Positions 2,926 through 52,263 are shown, counted from the stretch's first letter. The stretch: DNA of 64,000 nt from an uncultured virus (IMG/VR IMGVR_UViG_3300032677_000013) (IMGVR_UViG_3300032677_000013), one strand, 5' to 3'. The notes: generated from the letters alone by a model not told the origin. Program-made: numbers and translations.

Positions 2926-3244
2926 TATCGAGCGGTCAATATCTGAGGCCGAGGAACTATTCGTTTCCGCTGGTCAAGCCAAGATCAGGGCCGAGGGGCT
3001 CGATCTTCGCCGTAAGCGCGTCCGTGCTACCCTGTTTTGCAAATACAAGGGAGACGGCCATGCAGCGGGTGCCAGTGAGCAAATGGCCGAGGCCGATCCG
3101 GTCTATGAAATGGCCTGCATTGATTGGGAAACCGCCGCGATGGAGGCGGAAACCTTGCGCGCCCAAGCAGAGGCAAAGCGCCTTCGCTTTGAGGCATGGC
3201 GCACCCAACAATCGACCGCCCGCGCCCAAATGAACCTGAGGTGA
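2918..3244 (+). CDS. helical hypothetical phage protein
   Basis: overlapping start; coiled coil ending FEAWRTQQSTARA. Confidence 0.7.
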   Translation: MANIERSISEAEELFVSAGQAKIRAEGLDLRRKRVRATLFCKYKGDGHAAGASEQMAEADPVYEMACIDWETAAMEAETLRAQAEAKRLRFEAWRTQQSTARAQMNLR

Positions 3245-3396
3245 TGAGCATGACCCATATCCGCGAACTGTTGTTCTGGACGTTTCTCGCCTGCCTGTCG
3301 CCGTTGCTGATTGTGGCGCTTGTGTTGGGATTCGCGTTTGTCTTGGCGGCTGCTGTTCCGCTGGCTCTGGCTGAGTTTGTGAGGGGTGGAAAATGA
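3244..3396 (+). CDS. small membrane protein
   Basis: long hydrophobic stretch; coupled to neighbours. Confidence 0.55.
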   Translation: MSMTHIRELLFWTFLACLSPLLIVALVLGFAFVLAAAVPLALAEFVRGGK

Positions 3397-3569
3397 CCCC
3401 GCTCATCCAACAAGCTCGCGAGCGCGTCAAAGACAGCAAGTTATGGGGACGCACCTGCGTCAAGGCAATCATGGGGGGCCATTGGGATAATGGCTCACTG
3501 ATCCGTCAGGCTGTCAATAAAATCGAGGCCGAGCAAATGCGCGCCATGAAGGAGGCAGAGCATGGTTGA
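3393..3569 (+). CDS. 58-aa WG..GHWD protein (partner of ACP-like gene), not in ORF track
   Basis: MTPLIQQARERVKDSKLWGRTCVKAIMGGHWDNGSLIRQAVNKIEAEQ; homologue at 41750-41923. Confidence 0.8.
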   Translation: MTPLIQQARERVKDSKLWGRTCVKAIMGGHWDNGSLIRQAVNKIEAEQMRAMKEAEHG

Positions 3570-3813
3570 GGATATGGCAGATACACGCCGCGCCGTCCTT
3601 GCGCTGATCGCCCGCTATGCCGGATGCGAGCCACGCCAACTTGCCGATGACGATAGCCTGCGCGCCGATCTTTGGATTGACGCGATAGACCTATGCGACA
3701 TGACAATGGAGATGGAGCCCATTGCCGGTTGTGACATCACGCAAGAGGTTATGACCGCATGGGAGACTGTGGGCGATGTGGTGCGCTGGGTTGAAATGCA
3801 GGATTCCCCTTGA
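3562..3813 (+). CDS. acyl carrier protein-like, attachment Ser replaced by Ala
   Basis: SLRADLWIDAIDLCDMTMEME...WETVGDVV aligns to ACP [21 protein letters not shown]...ITTVQAAI. Confidence 0.8.
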   Translation: MVEDMADTRRAVLALIARYAGCEPRQLADDDSLRADLWIDAIDLCDMTMEMEPIAGCDITQEVMTAWETVGDVVRWVEMQDSP

Positions 3814-4000: not shown

Positions 4001-4715
4001 CACTAACATTCCCGAAGACTACAAGCCAGTCCCTGCTGGTTGCACTTCCATGCCAGATGATGCTGATCCTGATGCGCTGGTTTGGATGTGCAGGGAATGG
4101 CTGGGTGATCTTGCCGTGAACGTTGATGGGTATGACTGGCAGCATCATGTCAAAGCCTACAAACCCAAGCATCTAAAAGTCAGCGAGAAGAAGTTGCAAG
4201 ACGACGCTCATGACAAGGCTATGGCGCAGTATGAAGCCTTAGTTCAGAGGTTATCCAAACCCAGCGAGAAGTCACTGGCCGAGGCAGTGCGGCGGTTGAA
4301 TGAACCATTCGCACCAACGGCTGCTTTGTTTGGGCCTCGTTCGTCTTGTTCTATTACTTTCGCCCTCGCACTGGATGAGATTGACCGGCTGAAGGAGGAA
4401 CGGGATAACTACGCACACATAGTATTGAATATAGATGAAAACCCACCCATTACCGAAGAAACGCTGCTGAAAGAGGCGCGGGAGATTTGGAACGCGTGGC
4501 CGGTGAACCAAGACGCTACACTGGAGGCTATTCTGAAAGTTATCCGTCGCGGCGTTGATGAGCTCGCTGGTGGGGAGGTTGCCGAGAAGGTTGATCCCGA
4601 TGCCGAGGCGCTGAAGCGGGTGTTGGGAACTGCCTACGAACCGTCTCAAGATGTATTTGCCAGTATGGTGTCGCGTCTCAAAGCAGAACTGGCCGCAGCA
4701 AAGGAGCGTGGGTGA
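3993..4715 (+). CDS. mosaic hypothetical protein
   Basis: RBS AGGAG; contains blocks shared with 44040-44309. Confidence 0.7.
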   Translation: MTNTNIPEDYKPVPAGCTSMPDDADPDALVWMCREWLGDLAVNVDGYDWQHHVKAYKPKHLKVSEKKLQDDAHDKAMAQYEALVQRLSKPSEKSLAEAVRRLNEPFAPTAALFGPRSSCSITFALALDEIDRLKEERDNYAHIVLNIDENPPITEETLLKEAREIWNAWPVNQDATLEAILKVIRRGVDELAGGEVAEKVDPDAEALKRVLGTAYEPSQDVFASMVSRLKAELAAAKERG

Positions 4716-4771: not shown

Positions 4772-5230
4772 ATGGAGAGTGAGTTGAAGCCGTGCCCGAA
4801 ATGTAACGCTGGCCCCGGCGAGGGGTGTTATGCTGAAATTTTGACTGCGGCGCATGTCGTTACAACCGTCCGCGCCGCCCTCACCGCCTACGAGAGCGCG
4901 GGGGTGGAGATGCAGCGGGAACTTATCGAGGCTGCGTTTAACGCGCTGCACGACGAACCCGACGCAATCCGCGAGGGTGTAGCGTGGGGCATCTGGCATA
5001 ACCAGCGCCGGAAGGCCCGCGAAATGCTCGACGCCGAAGCCTATCTCGACGCGGTGATGATGTTAAAACCAGAAGGGTGCCGAGTGCGCGTAGACATCAT
5101 GGAGGATGGGTGCGGTGGTGCTTGGGTGTGGTGGCCCACAGAATACGCTGGACTAACTACCCCACGCTACGCCACCCCAGCACTCGCGCTCCTAGCCGCC
5201 ATATGTAGGGATTTGGGGAGTGAGGGGTGA
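4772..5230 (+). CDS. hypothetical protein (LKPCPKC N-terminus)
   Basis: C-terminal half nearly identical to 44518-44859. Confidence 0.7.
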   Translation: MESELKPCPKCNAGPGEGCYAEILTAAHVVTTVRAALTAYESAGVEMQRELIEAAFNALHDEPDAIREGVAWGIWHNQRRKAREMLDAEAYLDAVMMLKPEGCRVRVDIMEDGCGGAWVWWPTEYAGLTTPRYATPALALLAAICRDLGSEG

Positions 5231-5233
5231 TGG
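5017..5233 (+). repeat. 217-bp block shared with 44646-44862
   Basis: manual alignment shows 3 mismatches. Confidence 0.9.
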
Positions 5234-34421: not shown

Positions 34422-34645
34422 ACGCGCCCCTCGCCATCACCAGCCCCCGCGAGCTTGAGAAGGCCGCTAACGACGCCATCACCGCCAAGCTTCGGTTTGA
34501 TGCCTATCAAGGCAATGATCGGGAATGGGATCGCCTTTGCCGTGAGAGCGACGAGGCGACTCTCGTGTTTCAGTCCACCCTTCACAGGGCTGGTATTAGC
34601 AAGGGCTTGATGGCCGCGCTTATCGGCAGCGGGGTGGTTGCATGA
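34418..34645 (+). CDS. hypothetical protein
   Basis: GTGA coupling. Confidence 0.6.
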   Translation: MNAPLAITSPRELEKAANDAITAKLRFDAYQGNDREWDRLCRESDEATLVFQSTLHRAGISKGLMAALIGSGVVA

Positions 34646-34772
34646 TCCGCCTCCGCTACATTCTCCTTGGGGCCGTCATCCTCGTGTTTTGGTCAGAGAC
34701 ATCGCCCGGCATCGAGGCCAAGCGCGCTGGGGTGCTGGTGGGTTTCCACCTGCCAGTTGCAGAGGTGCGGCC

Positions 34773-36260
34773 ATGAGTGGGCGCGTCATCTACCTGCCGT
34801 GGATCGAGCGTTCCATGCTGCAGGCAGACCCCGAGGCCCGCTTTGTGTTTGGCGACAATGCCGAACGCTGGGGCCTTGGCGGTCAGGCCAAGGAGATGCG
34901 CGGCGAGCCCAATGCCATTGGTGTGGCCACGCTCTGGTCGCCCGGGCAGTTTTACCCAGCCGGGGAAGTGGCTGCTGTGTGTGTTGTGCTGGACTTCTAC
35001 CCGCTCGAAAATGGAAATCGTTTCGCCAAGGTCACGATGCGCGGTCAGGTTGATCGCAGCGATGACAGGAAATGGGCTGCGGCCGAACTGACGGTTGATG
35101 TTGAACTGACGTTCCCGGCCTTTGTCACTGAGGTGATCCGCTGGGCTTGGGATGCGTGCAAGGCCGATGCGAGCGTCGAAGGAAATGTGACTAGCGGGAA
35201 ATACGCGACGAACGCCAGCAGCGGGGACTACGCGACGAACGCCAGCAGCGGGGACTACGCGACGAACGCCAGCAGCGGGGACTACGCGAAGAACGCCAGC
35301 AGCGGGGACTACGCGACGAACGCCAGCAGCGGGGACTACGCGAAGAACGCCAGCAGCGGGGACTCCGCGAAGAACGCCAGCAGCGGGAAATACGCGACGA
35401 ACGCCAGCAGCGGGGACTACGCGACGAACGCCAGCAGCGGGCAATCCGCGAAGAACGCCAGCAGCGGGCAATCCGCGACGAACGCCAGCAGCGGGAAATA
35501 CGCGACGAACGCCAGCAGCGGGGAATCCGCGACGAACGCCAGCAGCGGGGACTACGCGAAGAACGCCAGCAGCGGGCAATCCGCGAAGAACGCCAGCAGC
35601 GGGCAATCCGCGACGAACGCCAGCAGCGGGGACTACGCGAAGAACGCCAGCAGCGGGGACTACGCGAAGAACGCCAGCAGCGGGGACTACGCGAAGAACG
35701 CCAGCAGCGGGGACTACGCGAAGAACGCCAGCAGCGGGGACTACGCGACGAACGCCAGCAGCGGGGACTACGCGAAGAACGCCAGCAGCGGGGACTACGC
35801 GAAGAACGCCAGCAGCGGGGACTACGCGAAGAACGCCAGCAGCGGGGACTCCGCGACGAACGCCAGCAGCGGGGACTACGCGAAGAACGCCAGCAGCGGG
35901 GACTACGCGAAGAACGCCAGCAGCGGGGACTACGCGACGAACGCCAGCAGCGGGGACTACGCGAAGAACGCCAGCAGCGGGGACTCCGCGAAGAACGCCA
36001 GCAGCGGGGACTACGCGAAGAACGCCAGCAGCGGGGACTCCGCCTATAATGAGGCCACGGGCCAGCATTCCGTGATCAGCGGGGCAGGGCGCGGCACCCA
36101 ATACAAGGGCGCTGTCGGCGTGTGGATTTCCGCCGCTGAATATGCCCAGATTGACGGCGTATGGCGATGCATTGGCTTCGCCACCGGGCAGGCTGGGCAT
36201 GATGGTGTCCCCGCTGACACATGGTTGATCGCCCATGGCGGCAAGATGGTGCCAGCATGA
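34773..36260 (+). CDS. fusion: FVFGDN..GGQA (DUF7831/A1S_2505-like) fragment plus DUF7666-like NASSGDYA-repeat protein
   Basis: RBS GAGG; two recognisable part-domains followed by 31 nonapeptide repeats. Confidence 0.75.
   Translation: MSGRVIYLPWIERSMLQADPEARFVFGDNAERWGLGGQAKEMRGEPNAIGVATLWSPGQFYPAGEVAAVCVVLDFYPLENGNRFAKVTMRGQVDRSDDRKWAAAELTVDVELTFPAFVTEVIRWAWDACKADASVEGNVTSGKYATNASSGDYATNASSGDYATNASSGDYAKNASSGDYATNASSGDYAKNASSGDSAKNASSGKYATNASSGDYATNASSGQSAKNASSGQSATNASSGKYATNASSGESATNASSGDYAKNASSGQSAKNASSGQSATNASSGDYAKNASSGDYAKNASSGDYAKNASSGDYAKNASSGDYATNASSGDYAKNASSGDYAKNASSGDYAKNASSGDSATNASSGDYAKNASSGDYAKNASSGDYATNASSGDYAKNASSGDSAKNASSGDYAKNASSGDSAYNEATGQHSVISGAGRGTQYKGAVGVWISAAEYAQIDGVWRCIGFATGQAGHDGVPADTWLIAHGGKMVPA
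35211..36047 (+). repeat. 31 x 27-bp coding tandem repeat
   Basis: AACGCCAGCAGCGGG(GAC/AAA/CAA/GAA)(TAC/TCC)GCG(AAG/ACG); last unit ends GCCTAT. Confidence 0.97.
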
Positions 36261-39944: not shown

Positions 39945-40383
39945 CAAGCCAAGCCTGATGTTTGAGGTGCGCTTTGGCAGCCTTCACCCTATTAATTCAG
40001 CCGCACGGGAGGCGGTGAATTCCATCCCCCCCGGCCCGGTTAGGGTTGAGATTAAGCGCACCAGAGCAAACGAGGCTCGGCGGGGATTTTATTGGTTAAT
40101 GTTAGATGTGGCGTCTGAAGCCCTAACGGACGCCACGGGCTTTGTCTGGGATCAGGAACTGTTGCACAATGAACTAAAGCGCCACCTAAGCCTTGGGGAG
40201 CGGTTTACAACGCCATCAGGGCATGAGGTGTTCAAGCCCCGATCTACCAGCAACATGGCGATGACAGAGCATGAGCGGGCACGTTGGACGGATAGATGCG
40301 CCAATTTCTTGAGCCACTGGCTAGGATGTGAAATTACCGAGCTAATGGATGAGGCTCGACGTAGGAATGGAGATGTGGGATGA
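39931..40383 (+). CDS. NinB/DUF1367-like protein
   Basis: R.N....YW, LH..LK, PRSTS..M motif. Confidence 0.6.
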   Translation: MAMSDKPSLMFEVRFGSLHPINSAAREAVNSIPPGPVRVEIKRTRANEARRGFYWLMLDVASEALTDATGFVWDQELLHNELKRHLSLGERFTTPSGHEVFKPRSTSNMAMTEHERARWTDRCANFLSHWLGCEITELMDEARRRNGDVG

Positions 40384-41753
40384 ATGCGGTATCTCTACCT
40401 TTAACCGTATCTGATTTAATAGATGAATATGCCGGAAAAGACGCTGCCATAGATGGTGCGATTGCCGATTTTAAAGCCGCATATGATCGGCTGGGGATGG
40501 CCGTAACTGTCAACGGCACCTACGCAGAAAACGTCATAACCGCACCTAATCTTTATCGAGACAGCCTGCGGCGGAATTTGTTAAAGTCGGGCTGGAAGGC
40601 GGTTTATAATCGCCTGCAAATTGATGCTTTGGCCAGTGCCAATGATAAAAAGCTATTTGAGCGGGCGCTGGCTGATCCAGCCCCTCTTACGCTAGATAAT
40701 GCCAAGGCAACATTTGGCGATTATATCGTGCGTCCGCGCTTCCATATTCTGCGCGGGTTGGCCGAGGTGTTCACCCAGATTGACCCCGCTTACAAATCGC
40801 ACAGCAAGGTTCGCATCGGCGTGAAAGGCCTGCCCAAGCGGGTGATCTTGAACGGCTGGAGTGAATACAGCTACGGCACTGCCCGCGACCGATTCCGCGA
40901 TATGGTCAACGCGATGGCTGCTTTGCGCGAACAGCCGCCCTATGAGCACCGGGAAATGACGGCGATTAATCTTGCCCACCAGCAAGGCAAGGATGCCATA
41001 CTTGATGGCCGCAGTTATTTTGAGATTGATCGCTATAACCCGGAAAAGCGCAAAGCCTTTGCAACCATTAATCGCGGCTTGACAGTTCGCCGGTTCAGCA
41101 ATGGCAACGCGCATGTGTTCTTCGACAAGTGGGCGCTTCTCGACATCAACCGGGCGCTGGCTGAGTTCTATGGCGAAGTGCTGCCAGACGTTGATCCTGA
41201 AGACGCCAAGCACCAGCCGGGAACCGCCGTGTCAAAGGATCTGCAATTCTATTGGTCGCCCCCTGAAGTTGTGGCGCTTGCTTTGCAATTTGCCGACATT
41301 TACACTCGCGAACAATGTGGCATCAGGGCGTGGGAAGAGCGGAAACCGCTTCGTGTATTGGAGCCATCATGCGGGGATGGCCGTATCTTAGATGAACTGC
41401 GGGCACGTGGCTGCAAGGCATTGGGCATGGAATACCATCCGGGCCGAGCAGCGGAGGCAAGGGCCAAAGGTCATGCCGTTATGACTTGCAATTTCTTAGA
41501 CCAGCCAGCCACTAAAGATTTTGATGCGGTGGTGATGAATCCACCATTTTATGGGTTACACTATGTTAAGCACGTTCTCCACGCGGTCGGATTCCTAAAG
41601 CCCGGCGGAATGCTAGTGGCGATCCTGCCCGCCACTGCGCGTTATGACCATCATGACTTAAAAGGCGAATGGCGCGATTTGCCGGTAGCTAGTTTTGCCG
41701 ATGCAGGAACAAACGTGCCGACCACTATGTTAAAAATTAGGAGGCCAACATAA
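40380..41753 (+). CDS. DUF4942-like domain plus N6-adenine DNA methyltransferase
   Basis: F.NGN.H..F, VLEPSCGDG, VVMNPPF. Confidence 0.85.
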   Translation: MNAVSLPLTVSDLIDEYAGKDAAIDGAIADFKAAYDRLGMAVTVNGTYAENVITAPNLYRDSLRRNLLKSGWKAVYNRLQIDALASANDKKLFERALADPAPLTLDNAKATFGDYIVRPRFHILRGLAEVFTQIDPAYKSHSKVRIGVKGLPKRVILNGWSEYSYGTARDRFRDMVNAMAALREQPPYEHREMTAINLAHQQGKDAILDGRSYFEIDRYNPEKRKAFATINRGLTVRRFSNGNAHVFFDKWALLDINRALAEFYGEVLPDVDPEDAKHQPGTAVSKDLQFYWSPPEVVALALQFADIYTREQCGIRAWEERKPLRVLEPSCGDGRILDELRARGCKALGMEYHPGRAAEARAKGHAVMTCNFLDQPATKDFDAVVMNPPFYGLHYVKHVLHAVGFLKPGGMLVAILPATARYDHHDLKGEWRDLPVASFADAGTNVPTTMLKIRRPT

Positions 41754-41923
41754 AATCCATCATCCACCGCGCCCGCGAACGCCTAGCAGCCCAAAAGCTA
41801 TGGGGCCGCGTATCTGAAAAGGCCATCTTGGATGGGCATTGGGACACTGGCGATCTAATCCGCCACACCATGTATGAAATTGAGGCAGAAGATGTCCGCA
41901 ACATTAAGGAGCAGCCAGAATGA
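41750..41923 (+). CDS. WG..GHWD protein homologous to 3393-3569, ATA start
   Basis: IKSIIHRARERLAAQKLWGRVSEKAILDGHWDTGDLIRHTMYEIEAED; AGGAGG RBS 5 nt upstream. Confidence 0.7.
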   Translation: MKSIIHRARERLAAQKLWGRVSEKAILDGHWDTGDLIRHTMYEIEAEDVRNIKEQPE

Positions 41924-42168
41924 AAATCACATCGGATGATGCTTGCCTAATGATTGTCGGGTTGATCTATGATTGCGCGACAATTAGGCCAGACAAGATT
42001 GAATTTGAAAACACACTCCGCGATGATCTGGGGCTAGACGGCATATCCATCATTGATCTGACTATGGTTCTGGAGGATACGTTTAACATCGTCATTTCAT
42101 GTGAAGATATGCACACATGGGAAACGGTGTCAGATGTTGTCCATTGTGTAGAAAAGCTAAGATCATGA
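41920..42168 (+). CDS. acyl carrier protein-like, attachment Ser replaced by Gly
   Basis: LRDDLGLDGISIIDLTMVLEDTFNIVI...WETVSDVV. Confidence 0.85.
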   Translation: MKITSDDACLMIVGLIYDCATIRPDKIEFENTLRDDLGLDGISIIDLTMVLEDTFNIVISCEDMHTWETVSDVVHCVEKLRS

Positions 42169-42332
42169 AACAGTCTCTAGGCATTTTTGCTTTAATGGTC
42201 GCCCTGTGCATGGGCATGGTGATGCTGTTTTATTGGCTGGCGGTTTTGGCTGTTAATATATGGGGGTTGATCCGCAGCCTTTGTAATTACATTGTCATTA
42301 CATGGAGGGATAGACATGAACATACTTCATAA
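42165..42332 (+). CDS. small membrane protein
   Basis: hydrophobic, ATGA coupling. Confidence 0.5.
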   Translation: MKQSLGIFALMVALCMGMVMLFYWLAVLAVNIWGLIRSLCNYIVITWRDRHEHTS

Positions 42333-43866: not shown

Positions 43867-44098
43867 AGATTTCCGAGAAGCCCGTAAGGAGATGGGCCAT
43901 ACCCAGCACTCTCTTGCCTCCGCATTGCTTATGGGCAAACATGGATGGCAGACGATTAGCGCATGGGAAAACGGCAAACAAACCATACCGGGGCCGGTTA
44001 AGGTTGCCATGTATCATTTGTTAAATTGCGGAGGTAATCATGACCGACATACCCCCCAGCGAGAAGTCACTAGCCGAGGCGGTGCGGCGGTTGAATGA
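43856..44098 (+). CDS. XRE-family HTH protein
   Basis: P.DFREARK.MG.TQ..LA..L...TI..WE.G...IPGPV. Confidence 0.85.
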   Translation: MQPEDFREARKEMGHTQHSLASALLMGKHGWQTISAWENGKQTIPGPVKVAMYHLLNCGGNHDRHTPQREVTSRGGAAVE

Positions 44099-44309
44099 CC
44101 GCACTGGCATGAAGTGGCCTTCAAGATCACAATGCGTTGAAGAACTCGCCCTCGCACTGGATGAGATTGACCGGCTGCGGGTGGCGGAGGAGGCTTTGCA
44201 GCGTGTGTTTAAGCTGGATGAGTTTTTGAACGGCGAGCCATCGTCAGTCGAAGAAGTGATGAATTATATCCGGTATGTCGCCCGCGCCGCCCTCGAACGG
44301 AAGGATTGA
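44040..44309 (+). CDS. hypothetical protein
   Basis: RBS GGAGG; shares blocks with 3993-4715. Confidence 0.65.
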   Translation: MTDIPPSEKSLAEAVRRLNDRTGMKWPSRSQCVEELALALDEIDRLRVAEEALQRVFKLDEFLNGEPSSVEEVMNYIRYVARAALERKD

Positions 44310-44521: not shown

Positions 44522-44859
44522 CCCCCCCCGAGATCGCAACCGCCTGCGAGAGCGCGGGGGTGGAGGGGCAGAGAGAGTTGCTGATGGATGCGTTTGTGTC
44601 CATTCGCCCATTCGATCCGCAAGACTTTGACGCTGCGTTCGCGTTCCGCGAAATGCTCGACGCCGAAGCCTATCTGGACGCGGTGATGATGTTAAAACCA
44701 GAAGGGTGCCGAGTGCGCGTAGACATCATGGAGGATGGGTGCGGTGGTGCTTGGGTATGGTGGCCCACAGAATACGCTGGACTAACTACCCCACGCTACG
44801 CCACCCCAGCACTCGCGCTCCTAGCCGCCATATGTAGGGATTTGGGGGGTGAGGGGTGA
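44518..44859 (+). CDS. hypothetical protein
   Basis: homologue of 4772-5230. Confidence 0.7.
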   Translation: MTPPEIATACESAGVEGQRELLMDAFVSIRPFDPQDFDAAFAFREMLDAEAYLDAVMMLKPEGCRVRVDIMEDGCGGAWVWWPTEYAGLTTPRYATPALALLAAICRDLGGEG

Positions 44860-44990
44860 TGGATGAGAATATATTGGAGGATAATGGAGAGATTGACCCC
44901 GAGACATATTTTTTTCAAAACGCCTTGGCAATGTTTCGCTTAAAAGTGCGCGGCATTGAATGGCCGCCGGAGTAGTAAGGATAGCTTGTA

Positions 44991-45533
44991 ATGACTGATA
45001 CGCCCCCAGCCGTCGTGGTGCCCATGATTGACGCCGATAGGCCGGGAATAGGAAGTGACCCCCAAGTGATCCCGCAATTTACCTTGCAGCCAGAAATGGG
45101 GACGGACGGGCGCGAGATTAGGCTCGGGGTAATTGATAATGCCGAGTTCGACCGCGATGAAAAAGACTGGGCGGTCAAATATGCTATTACAACCGATAAA
45201 CTAATATCCTCGCTGCGGCTTTCCTATGGTCATGATCTGGCTGTAGAAGTGCCCGCAAACATACACTTTGGACGTTATTTCAATCTTGGCTTGGATGTGC
45301 AATGGCAGAGAAATACGCCAATGACATATGCCGCCGAGTTTAACATAACGCCCACAAACCGGCTAACTGTTACACCGACGCTATATAGAGACAATAAAAC
45401 AAGAGCCGCCATCTTTTTTGCATGGATTCCACCGGGCCATAACAACATACAGTTAGACGCTGGTTACGATAACCCAAAAATAACGGTGGGCATTTCAACT
45501 GCAATCAGTTTTGCAAAAGAATTGAATAAATGA
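44991..45533 (+). CDS. beta-strand protein resembling a shortened MetA-pathway-type outer-membrane barrel
   Basis: DRPG.G..P.V.P...Q.E.G start, QLD.G near end, amphipathic strands. Confidence 0.45.
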   Translation: MTDTPPAVVVPMIDADRPGIGSDPQVIPQFTLQPEMGTDGREIRLGVIDNAEFDRDEKDWAVKYAITTDKLISSLRLSYGHDLAVEVPANIHFGRYFNLGLDVQWQRNTPMTYAAEFNITPTNRLTVTPTLYRDNKTRAAIFFAWIPPGHNNIQLDAGYDNPKITVGISTAISFAKELNK

Positions 45534-47335
45534 GCCTCATCCCAAACATTTTGCACTTTATATGGTTTACAGGCCCAAAATCCCGGGACTTTGCATTTAT
45601 CAACTATCTGGCAGTCAGAGCCGCGTATGATGTGCAAAAGCCAGACGTCATTTATATGCACACCAATGCAGAGCCTGTAGGCAACCCTCATTGGGACGCC
45701 ATTCGTCCTTACGTTACAATGGTGCAAACGGAACCGCCAGCCATTTCAGAATACCCGCAGTATCAGGCGGACATCGTGCGGTTAGATGTGCTTTATGATC
45801 AGGGGGGAATATACCTTGATACGGATATGCTGCTAATTAAGCCCCTATCCTTCCAGAGAACCACAATGGGGGTGGAAAGCTATAATGAAGATGGCTCGCC
45901 CAAGTCTTTAAACGCGGGATTGATTGTGGCAAAGCTGGGATGCCCGTTCATTGGCCGATGGAAGCGGGAAATGCTAGGGGTTATAGGCACTGGGGAATGG
46001 TCATCGCATTGCGTGACACTGGCAGCGGAAATCTATGAGCAAAACCCGACACTAATTGATTTAAGGCCTGCCGAGGAGTTTCTGCCATTCGATTTTAATG
46101 ATGAATGGATTTATGGGAATATATCGGGGGAAGAGCGGCTGCTCAATTCCTATTCGGTCCATATGTATGACACCTACTGGGAAGGTGTTGAGTGGAGCGA
46201 ATTGCGCAAGGTTAACAACAATTATCTGAAAAATGAGCGCAATCTATTTACACACTTATTTGGGAAATACTCGATGACCAAAAAGCTAAAAATATGCGTC
46301 TATGCTATCAGCAAAAACGAAGAGTTGTTTGTGGAGCGGTTTTGCACCGCTGCTAAAGACGCCGATATGATTGTTATTGCAGACACTGGAAGCACTGACA
46401 AAACAATTAAATTGGCAGATCAATGTGGGGCTATTGTTCACGAAATTTGCATCACTCCTTGGCGGTTTGATGATGCGCGCAATGCCGCAATAGCATTGCT
46501 TCCCCGCGATATTGACGTTTGTGTCAGCCTTGATCTTGACGAGGAATTGCAGTCGGGATGGCGAGAAGAAATTGAGCGCGTTTGGGTGGAGGGCACAACT
46601 CGTTTAAGGTATGGCTTCGACTGGGGAGCAGGCATCAAGTTCTCTTACGAGAAGATTCACGCCCGACATGGTTATAGATGGCTTCACCCCTGCCATGAAT
46701 ATCCCGTCCCCTATGGCATAAATGAACAATACGCCCATACCGATATGCTTTTGGTAATCCACAAGCCCGACCCCACCAAAAGCCGTGGGCAATATTTGCC
46801 CCTTTTGGAAATGTCGATCAGGGAAGATCCGCATGATCCCCGCAATGCTTTTTATTATGCCCGTGAATTGTCGTTCCATAGCCATTGGCAACAGGCCATT
46901 GATGAATGCAACCGCTATCTAAACCTGCCCGGTGCCAATTGGGCTAATGAGCGCTGCTATGCCTATCGAGTAATGTCTCGATGCTATGCGGAATTGGGAG
47001 ATTGGGAAGGCGCTATGAGGGCCGCGCGCATGGGTGTTATTGAGGCACCATATACCCGAGAGCCTTGGTGCGAAATTGCAAAACTAACTTATCAAAGGCA
47101 CCAGTGGGCGGAATGCTATGGGGCCGCTATGTCAGCCATTGCCATTGAACAGCGCGAATGGGTTTATACGGTGGACCCTGAAGTTTGGGGCTCGATGCCC
47201 CATGATTATGCCAGCATCGCAGCTTGGAACCTTGGCATGAAAGAAGATGCGATAAGGCAAGCCAAATTGGCCCTAGAGCATAATCCTAACGATAGCCGGA
47301 TTCTTTCTAATCTGGCTCATTACCAAGCGGGATAA
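45530..47335 (+). CDS. fused glycosyltransferase GT32 + GT2 + TPR
   Basis: IPNILHFIW, AD.VR..L...GGIYLDTD; then ICVYAISKNE, DTGSTD, FDDARN, SLDLDE; FYYAREL TPR region. Confidence 0.9.
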   Translation: MSLIPNILHFIWFTGPKSRDFAFINYLAVRAAYDVQKPDVIYMHTNAEPVGNPHWDAIRPYVTMVQTEPPAISEYPQYQADIVRLDVLYDQGGIYLDTDMLLIKPLSFQRTTMGVESYNEDGSPKSLNAGLIVAKLGCPFIGRWKREMLGVIGTGEWSSHCVTLAAEIYEQNPTLIDLRPAEEFLPFDFNDEWIYGNISGEERLLNSYSVHMYDTYWEGVEWSELRKVNNNYLKNERNLFTHLFGKYSMTKKLKICVYAISKNEELFVERFCTAAKDADMIVIADTGSTDKTIKLADQCGAIVHEICITPWRFDDARNAAIALLPRDIDVCVSLDLDEELQSGWREEIERVWVEGTTRLRYGFDWGAGIKFSYEKIHARHGYRWLHPCHEYPVPYGINEQYAHTDMLLVIHKPDPTKSRGQYLPLLEMSIREDPHDPRNAFYYARELSFHSHWQQAIDECNRYLNLPGANWANERCYAYRVMSRCYAELGDWEGAMRAARMGVIEAPYTREPWCEIAKLTYQRHQWAECYGAAMSAIAIEQREWVYTVDPEVWGSMPHDYASIAAWNLGMKEDAIRQAKLALEHNPNDSRILSNLAHYQAG

Positions 47336-48874: not shown

Positions 48875-52263
<3,389 letters not shown>

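Follow-up and report, generated by a model that had tools for sequence, protein, structure and literature searches.

The window, by which we mean the whole analysed stretch of 64,000 nucleotides from an uncultured virus (IMG/VR IMGVR_UViG_3300032677_000013), contains two copies of a pair of small genes, one in a region referred to here as phage A and the other in a region referred to as phage B. An earlier note on this DNA had described a 58-aa open reading frame (ORF) that overlaps a gene encoding a protein with an acyl carrier protein (ACP) fold, in which Ala replaces the attachment Ser. Both ORFs are present in phage A (3393-3569 and 3562-3813), and Ala does occupy the Ser column. We refer to the first gene of the pair as the micro gene, or small gene, and to the second as the ACP-like gene. 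The two copies and the signals around them are listed below, with the putative ribosome-binding sites and the GGAGG element as read from the sequence.

3393-3569, plus strand: micro gene A, with an ATG start, encoding 58 aa; it belongs to a family of small three-helix phage proteins
3549-3555, plus strand: AAGGAGG, putative ribosome-binding site of ACP-like gene A, within the final codons of micro A and 6 nt before the ATG at 3562
3562-3813, plus strand: ACP-like gene A, with an ATG start, encoding 83 aa (pI 4.05); the Ser site is Ala and the motif Gly is Trp (DLWIDAID)
40380-41753, plus strand: gene with DUF4942 and methyltransferase regions (Pfam, PHROGs), whose 3' end abuts micro B; context, outside the pair
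41740-41744, plus strand: GGAGG, at the 3' end of the methyltransferase coding sequence, with 5 nt between it and ATA 41750
41750-41923, plus strand: micro gene B, a frame homologous to micro A without a canonical start
41906-41911, plus strand: AAGGAG, putative ribosome-binding site of ACP-like gene B, within the final codons of micro B and 8 nt before the ATG at 41920
41920-42168, plus strand: ACP-like gene B, encoding 82 aa (pI 4.15); the Ser site is Gly (DLGLDGIS)

The micro A and ACP-like A genes overlap by 8 nt and are read in different frames. The small proteins of the two copies share 52% identity over 54 residues (E 2e-20), and the ACP-like proteins 39% identity over 67 residues. The possibility that the two genes are fused through a frameshift was rejected, because the frames differ, each ACP-like gene has a ribosome-binding site and an ATG of its own, and relatives of the small gene stop at the same place before unrelated genes. 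Small membrane proteins with a single pass are encoded next to the pair, one of them (3196-3396, plus strand) just before micro A and another (42165-42332, plus strand) just after ACP-like B, the ATG of the latter overlapping the ACP-like B stop codon.

The earlier note had also pointed out that the pair is repeated in phage B. The same order, with diverged sequences, is indeed found at 41750-42168, but micro B has no ATG, and copies A and B do not represent independent observations. In both regions the genes are arranged in the order Erf, SSB, DUF968/HNH, intervening genes, micro and ACP-like, and patches of 92-99% DNA identity link the segment at 4.2-5.2 kb with that at 44.0-44.9 kb. This patchwork between the early operons is classic lambdoid mosaicism. 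Since A and B are mosaic relatives that share their gene order, the recurrence of the pair is inherited and does not reflect independent acquisition. The early operons around the pair contain Erf, SSB, exonuclease, NinB-like and DNA methyltransferase genes. Among the nearby ORFs scanned, none was found to encode a fatty-acid, polyketide or phosphopantetheinyl transferase (PPTase) function, an ACP-using enzyme or a known ACP partner. The genes downstream of the ACP-like gene differ between A and B. The structural genes include those for a P22-type portal and a terminase (Pfam); the portal is less than 42% identical to that of any isolated phage, and its nearest relatives are P22-like podoviruses of Proteobacteria. 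At a finer scale, patches of 77-99% DNA identity amid 39-52% protein identity were seen between 4260-4398 and 4883-5233 on the one hand and 44055-44184 and 44539-44862 on the other.

Several other features of the window were recorded. The ORF at 34638-36260 (plus strand) encodes 540 aa with a DUF7831 N-terminus and contains, at 35031-36113, about 33 tandem 27-nt (9-aa) units with 90-95% identity and a local GC content of 0.63. The 3' part of this gene recurs in the window's first 399 bases (98% and 93%), so the window starts within a second copy of it, and the join between phage A and phage B falls in repeated sequence where an assembler could make a wrong connection. A minus-strand ORF of 1011 aa (48875-51910) contains long runs of 9-nt units, with collagen-like Gly-X-Y triplets on the coding strand, and is probably a tail fibre gene. 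In the nearest virus record (G001) no match to the ACP-like gene was found, and its overlap with the window is confined to about 34.7-35.4 kb and to collagen-like repeats; the start of G001 is linked to the window by short matches to the collagen-like repeats of the 1011-aa ORF. The early operon of phage B also encodes a 601-aa protein (45530-47335, plus strand; phrog_13126, E 1e-99) with a DXD glycosyltransferase region and C-terminal TPR repeats, which is possibly a host-surface or DNA-modifying moron.

The micro B frame contains no ATG, GTG or TTG before 41828, while its homology to micro A and to close relatives begins farther upstream. The relatives of copy B (hereafter the B group) start with ATG-ACx-GAC-CGC-ACC (MTDRT...; MTDRTI...), and at the junction with the methyltransferase gene about 12 unique bases are present in place of the first five codons of micro B. 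Candidate upstream starts are ATA 41750 and ATC 41759/41762; the TTG at 41828 would give a product of 31 aa only. ATA 41750 overlaps the stop codon of the methyltransferase gene (ACATAA), and the GGAGG upstream of it is a possible candidate site for non-canonical or termination-coupled initiation of micro B. Alternatively, micro B is a candidate for a freshly disabled gene. In the relative L011, a second, 250-aa methyltransferase-like ORF is located between the DUF4942 methyltransferase gene and a micro gene that does start with ATG. A rearrangement in copy B has removed the ATG of the small gene, and the ACP-like gene behind it stays intact.

We then consider the nature of the ACP-like protein. 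Both copies score above the gathering score of 20.8 of the PP-binding family PF00550 (28.3 bits for A and 31.4 bits for B), and both match the PHROG phrog_5934 "acyl carrier protein" (E 1e-7 and 1.3e-8, respectively). When all PDB chains were searched with phmmer, bacterial ACPs of fatty-acid synthesis were matched over nearly the full length, with best E values of 5e-6 (A) and 8e-9 (B). The AF2 model of the ACP-like protein has four helices (pLDDT 84.7), and its top Foldseek matches are carrier proteins throughout (probability 1.00). Thus, the ACP fold proposed in the earlier note, that is, the four-helix carrier-protein fold of the PF00550 superfamily, was recovered by family profile, structure model and structure comparison alike. 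The 82-83-aa protein is a derivative of the type II fatty-acid-synthesis ACP in which the four helices of the fold and the acidic character of helix II have been retained. It resembles AcpP/AcpA (PF00550, TIGR00517 / PRK00982) in its length, four-helix fold, full-length match, D-L-x-x-D motif, acidic helix II and pI of about 4. In contrast to AcpP/AcpA, the phage family has Ala, Gly, Val or Arg for the attachment Ser, and in copy A Trp for the motif Gly; it has an invariant Trp-Glu and sub-equivalog scores, and it is encoded in a phage early operon without fab/pls neighbours. The invariant Trp-Glu of the family is located ahead of helix IV (M..WE.V.DVV), and when A and B are compared (35-39% identity) it is among the 22 invariant columns.

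The phmmer alignments place the Ala of A (DLWIDAID) and the Gly of B (DLGLDGIS) in the same column as the Ser of DLGADSLD, so that the Ser of the D-S-L motif, to which 4'-phosphopantetheine is attached in a functional ACP, is missing from both copies. To the family belong, apart from A and B, few sequences. In a word-index protein search, A matched no cluster other than the one it belongs to and B matched three close clusters; an alignment-query search added a single protein, the true ACP P0030, which is the nearest Ser-bearing relative (37% identical to A; motif DLGLDSID). Counting the ACP-like family with its cluster members, and leaving P0030 outside as a true ACP, there are 13 distinct sequences; their Ser column contains Gly in eight, Val in three, Ala in one and Arg in one. 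None of the 13 family homologues keeps the Ser. Moreover, in the cluster of P0023, which consists of seven near-identical sequences, the Ser site is the sole column with three different residues. The model scores follow the same division. P0030 passes the NCBIfam ACP cut-off of 71 with a score of 73.5, whereas A (35.7), B (45.6) and P0023 (38.2) fail it, and for TIGR00517 (cut-off 70.45) A (30.3) and B (40.0) are below and the Ser-bearing control P0030 (71.5) is above.

Because the phosphopantetheine Ser has been lost, canonical acyl carriage would be excluded, and the ACP-fold protein is predicted not to be loadable at the canonical site. It might still be a carrier that is loaded on another residue, for example on the Ser two positions further on in copy B (DGIS), which the B group retains. 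We consider this extremely unlikely, since copy A has Asp at that position (DAID) and no Ser in helix II. In addition, the Ser that PPTases require stands at the N-terminal end of helix II. Also against loading elsewhere is the statement in 10.1101/2025.01.28.635281 that one substitution within the DSL motif can be enough to block modification by AcpS.

Another possible explanation for the loss of the Ser is that the gene is a decaying, functionless remnant of an acquired acpP-type auxiliary gene. A Ser column that is free to vary (A, G, V, R), scores below the cut-off for all NCBIfam ACP models and the rarity of the family, for which few clusters were found, would agree with decay. However, the dN/dS values among the ACP-like copies of the B group are 0.06-0.20, and in every copy the ACP-like frame is intact and has a ribosome-binding site. 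The fold is also predicted with confidence, and the 22 columns have remained invariant over the divergence between A and B. A remnant is therefore very improbable. Judged from these substitution ratios, selection has kept the ACP-like gene, which argues that it is no relic; the gene is under purifying selection and appears to be functional. The central observation of the earlier note, a protein with an ACP fold that is kept in phages although it would not be loadable at the canonical site, consequently holds: the fold is supported, Ser is found in 0/13 sequences, and the dN/dS range is that given above.

Judged from a small sample, the absence of the Ser is not usual among phage ACPs. ACP genes are often annotated in phages and, according to PMC5463345 and PMC13573597, their role is unclear. 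We surveyed 12 records, hand-picked for diversity among 40 listed of 70 that match the true ACP P0030. Eleven of these 12 homologues keep the Ser, and the exception, from Pseudomonas phage Lu11, has Asp; two of the 12 records are doubtful as phage genes, one being an "unverified organism" record and the other a contig with an adjoining fabG. The tabulation of the Ser position over phage ACPs that had been suggested thus gives, for this sample of 12/70 records, Ser as the usual residue and one further replacement. The Lu11 homologue (L044, 261896-262408 of the record) is annotated as a hypothetical protein and reads GVDDLD, with Asp in the Ser column. Both copies in the window resemble the phage ACPs of phrog_5934 (from jumbo and T4-like phages, phiCbK, phiRSL1 and others) in that they match this PHROG. 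Those phages are large and lytic, whereas the family described here is serine-less and occurs in temperate P22-like phages of about 35-45 kb. The ACP-like family is set apart by its temperate P22-like phages and by a non-acidic, variable residue at the Ser site (A, G, V, R). Searches of isolated phage genomes did not reveal relatives: tblastn with ACP-like B gave no match at E <= 1e-3, and blastn with the pair gave no match. The only tblastn match of ACP-like B at E <= 10 (in two records of one Agrobacterium phage) was rejected as a chance match to MazG, and L001 and L002 were rejected as relatives of ACP-like A, the match covering 17 residues only. No description of a serine-less phage ACP was found in CC-licensed PMC papers or in bioRxiv.

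For the small protein, HMMER was run in full against 1.84 billion representatives and gave 18 proteins at E <= 0.001, one of which is the query. P0017 and P0018 (409 and 433 aa) are repeat proteins and were dropped as spurious, leaving 15 further clusters of 46-71 aa; the cluster member P0024 (444 aa) is unlike the small protein and was also dropped. The family is characterised by the motif AR...WG...AI..G.WD.G, and A8, R9, I26, G29, W31, D32 and G34 are invariant in the alignment of the small protein (A1). The AF2 model of micro A consists of three helices (pLDDT 93.9). Pfam, PHROG and NCBIfam contain no family for the small protein, and Pfam gave no match at E <= 10 for either copy. A profile search of the PDB gave only chance matches (E 0.37), a search of the ESM Atlas gave no usable match, and tblastn of micro A against isolated phage genomes gave none at E <= 10. 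The best structural match in BFVD is A0A1W6DX95, an uncharacterised 74-aa protein of the isolated Sphingobium phage Lacusarx, which aligns to the small-protein model with a TMq of 0.82 and an rmsd of 1.1 over 52 columns, at 15% identity and E 0.2. Phage Lacusarx would provide a cultured system in which the small-protein family could be studied.

The earlier note had interpreted the two genes as a conserved two-gene module, in which the 58-aa protein is the dedicated partner of a serine-less ACP decoy directed against host ACP-dependent enzymes or defences. The genes are indeed adjacent, overlapping and in the same order in both phages and in all relatives of the B group, and every ACP-like locus with visible DNA, which leaves out the P0023 subgroup, has the small gene upstream. 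To examine this reading, stretches of DNA that surround homologues of the small protein were taken from collections of viral, metagenome and genome sequences, and their six-frame translations were searched with a profile for each of the two families. The small gene occurs in 24 stretches (E 1e-10 to 1e-30), namely the two copies in the window and 22 loci on 20 contigs, one of these loci being a 100% copy of A. Genome contigs gave no match with the smaller alignment A3, and two weak matches in Acidobacteriaceae contigs obtained with A5 were dropped as doubtful (E 1e-4 over 22 residues; 0.0075 with hmmsearch). Based on their translations, we distinguish 11 lineages among the loci: A; the B group; L008; L013; L014; L025/26; L027-29/31; L030; L032/33; L034/36/37; and L035. 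This census is a partial one, as it is based on alignment-driven scans only.

Within the DNA searched, an ACP-like ORF was found in only 2/11 lineages, A and the B group. The family HMM, a broader HMM to which a true ACP had been added and the true ACP by itself all gave this figure. The downstream DNA searched extends over 0.8-3 kb (0.8-1.5 kb for L013, L014 and L030), and an ACP-like gene could sit farther away. Pfam PP-binding was not detected in any of 21 flanking ORFs of the nine other lineages (12 on the downstream side, including a second L008 ORF, and 9 upstream). Instead, in these nine lineages the small gene precedes unrelated genes: that for a zinc-ribbon protein in L008, an excisionase-like gene and a 350-aa ORF, which we read as an integrase gene, in L025/26, a gene for a 427-aa protein in L027, and genes for small membrane or uncharacterised proteins in the remaining ones. 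The genes upstream of it in the other lineages encode NinB, a DnaA-type HTH protein or a family A DNA polymerase. The small-gene stop overlaps the start of a different gene in seven loci (L008, L025, L032, L033, L034, L035 and L036). Overlap with an unrelated next gene, of whatever kind, is thus common in such operons, and the overlap is not specific to the ACP-like gene. When the B group is compared with L008, the ACP-like gene and the membrane gene are seen to be inserted between the small gene and the zinc-ribbon gene, and these two genes of the B group may have arrived together.

The charges of the two proteins do not support a partnership either. The net charge of the ACP-like protein is -13.5 in A and -11.3 in B; that of the small protein is +2.7 in A, but -1.0 in B and mostly acidic over the rest of the family, so there is no charge complementarity. 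Finally, the shared order in A and B is inherited between kin, and the start of micro B was lost while ACP-like B remained intact. Altogether, the claim of a conserved module with a dedicated partner could not be upheld, and the synteny of the upstream gene on which it relied does not extend beyond A and the B group in the lineages compared; we regard a partner-plus-decoy module as improbable. That the micro gene adjoins the ACP-like gene is best explained by where the two lie in the operon of a single phage clade, and not by an obligate partnership; a facultative interaction of the two proteins in the A/B clade is possible. The small gene represents an independent and much more widespread family of three-helix phage proteins encoded near recombination, replication and integration genes.

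Starting from the fold, the serine loss and the selection described above, we infer a role in binding and what its target might be. The ACP shape and the acidic helix II have been kept and the cofactor site has been lost, so the protein most likely works by binding. It would be translated from a strong ribosome-binding site of its own, within the early operon of recombination and methylase genes that the two related P22-like temperate phages carry, and would act as a cofactor-free look-alike that takes up the place where ACP docks on a protein of the host or the phage. In an alternative form of the binding role, it would serve as an adaptor for a phage protein. We put the chance that this reading as a whole is right, a cofactor-free binding protein together with an independent small gene, at about even; within it, mimicry of the host ACP specifically would deserve roughly a third. 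Retention of the acidic helix II is also required by the fold itself and does not prove docking.

The solved complexes matched by the ACP-like model show that many enzymes have ACP as a partner; they include those with AcpS, FabZ/FabH/FabI and lipid A enzymes. Host ACP also binds SpoT, MukB, AcpS, Lpx acyltransferases and LuxI-type synthases. The partnership of ACP with MukBEF is reported in PMC8602292. One form that binding could take is competitive inhibition, in which the phage protein would block the docking site for ACP on a host protein dependent on holo- or acyl-ACP, such as the SMC complex MukBEF, SpoT, a lipid A or phospholipid acyltransferase, or an ACP-dependent defence. The residue in place of the Ser would then lie at the mouth of the active-site tunnel of the target and would vary under an arms race. 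Such an inhibitor is unlikely. Should it prove correct, "apo-ACP mimicry" would, with the Asp form of phage Lu11 counted in, be a strategy that has arisen repeatedly in phages.

Considering that the protein carries a net charge of -11 to -13.5 on only 82-83 aa and is encoded amid the early-operon genes named above, it could instead be a nucleic-acid mimic or anti-nuclease factor (anti-restriction or anti-RecBCD-type), with the ACP fold used as a stable polyanion. A viral DNA mimic that inhibits MukBEF is reported in PMC7617805. However, ordinary ACPs are as acidic, the Ser-bearing P0030 having a net charge of -12.1, which argues that the charge was inherited and is not a new feature. Moreover, the fold matches listed are all carrier proteins and include no known mimic of the Ocr/ArdA type. 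We regard nucleic-acid mimicry as unlikely.

By analogy with the mitochondrial ACP of Plasmodium, the protein could also be a structural subunit that works with a protein encoded by the phage itself, or an adaptor for it akin to a chaperone. According to PMC8547962, the cofactor-free mitochondrial ACP of Plasmodium falciparum binds and stabilises Isd11-Nfs1, which provides a precedent for an essential ACP that lacks phosphopantetheine (Ppant) and works by binding. The phage protein would resemble it in having an ACP fold without Ppant and, if the role proposed here is correct, in working via protein binding. Genes of uncharacterised function, whose products might be such partners, are present in the neighbourhood. 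The Plasmodium protein, on the other hand, is eukaryotic and organellar and has an LYR protein as its partner, whereas no LYR-type partner was found for the phage family. The small protein has neither the LYR motif nor the Complex1_LYR domain that an ACP-LYR pair would call for: there is no Pfam match for it at the threshold given above, and no L-Y-R tripeptide occurs in alignment A1. The genes downstream of the ACP-like gene, in addition, are not the same in A and B. An adaptor function of this kind thus seems quite unlikely.

ACP is among the most connected small proteins of bacteria. A phage version that keeps its shape and dispenses with the cofactor is a probe for the contacts that ACP makes during infection, and the ACP-like protein could point to a new target of takeover or counter-defence. 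The small upstream gene is no evidence for a module, but it represents an uncatalogued and confidently folded three-helix family that is present in neither Pfam nor PHROG. According to PMC5463345, the label "auxiliary metabolic genes" is widely given to the ACP genes of phages, and showing that some phage ACPs are cofactor-free would alter how that label is read.
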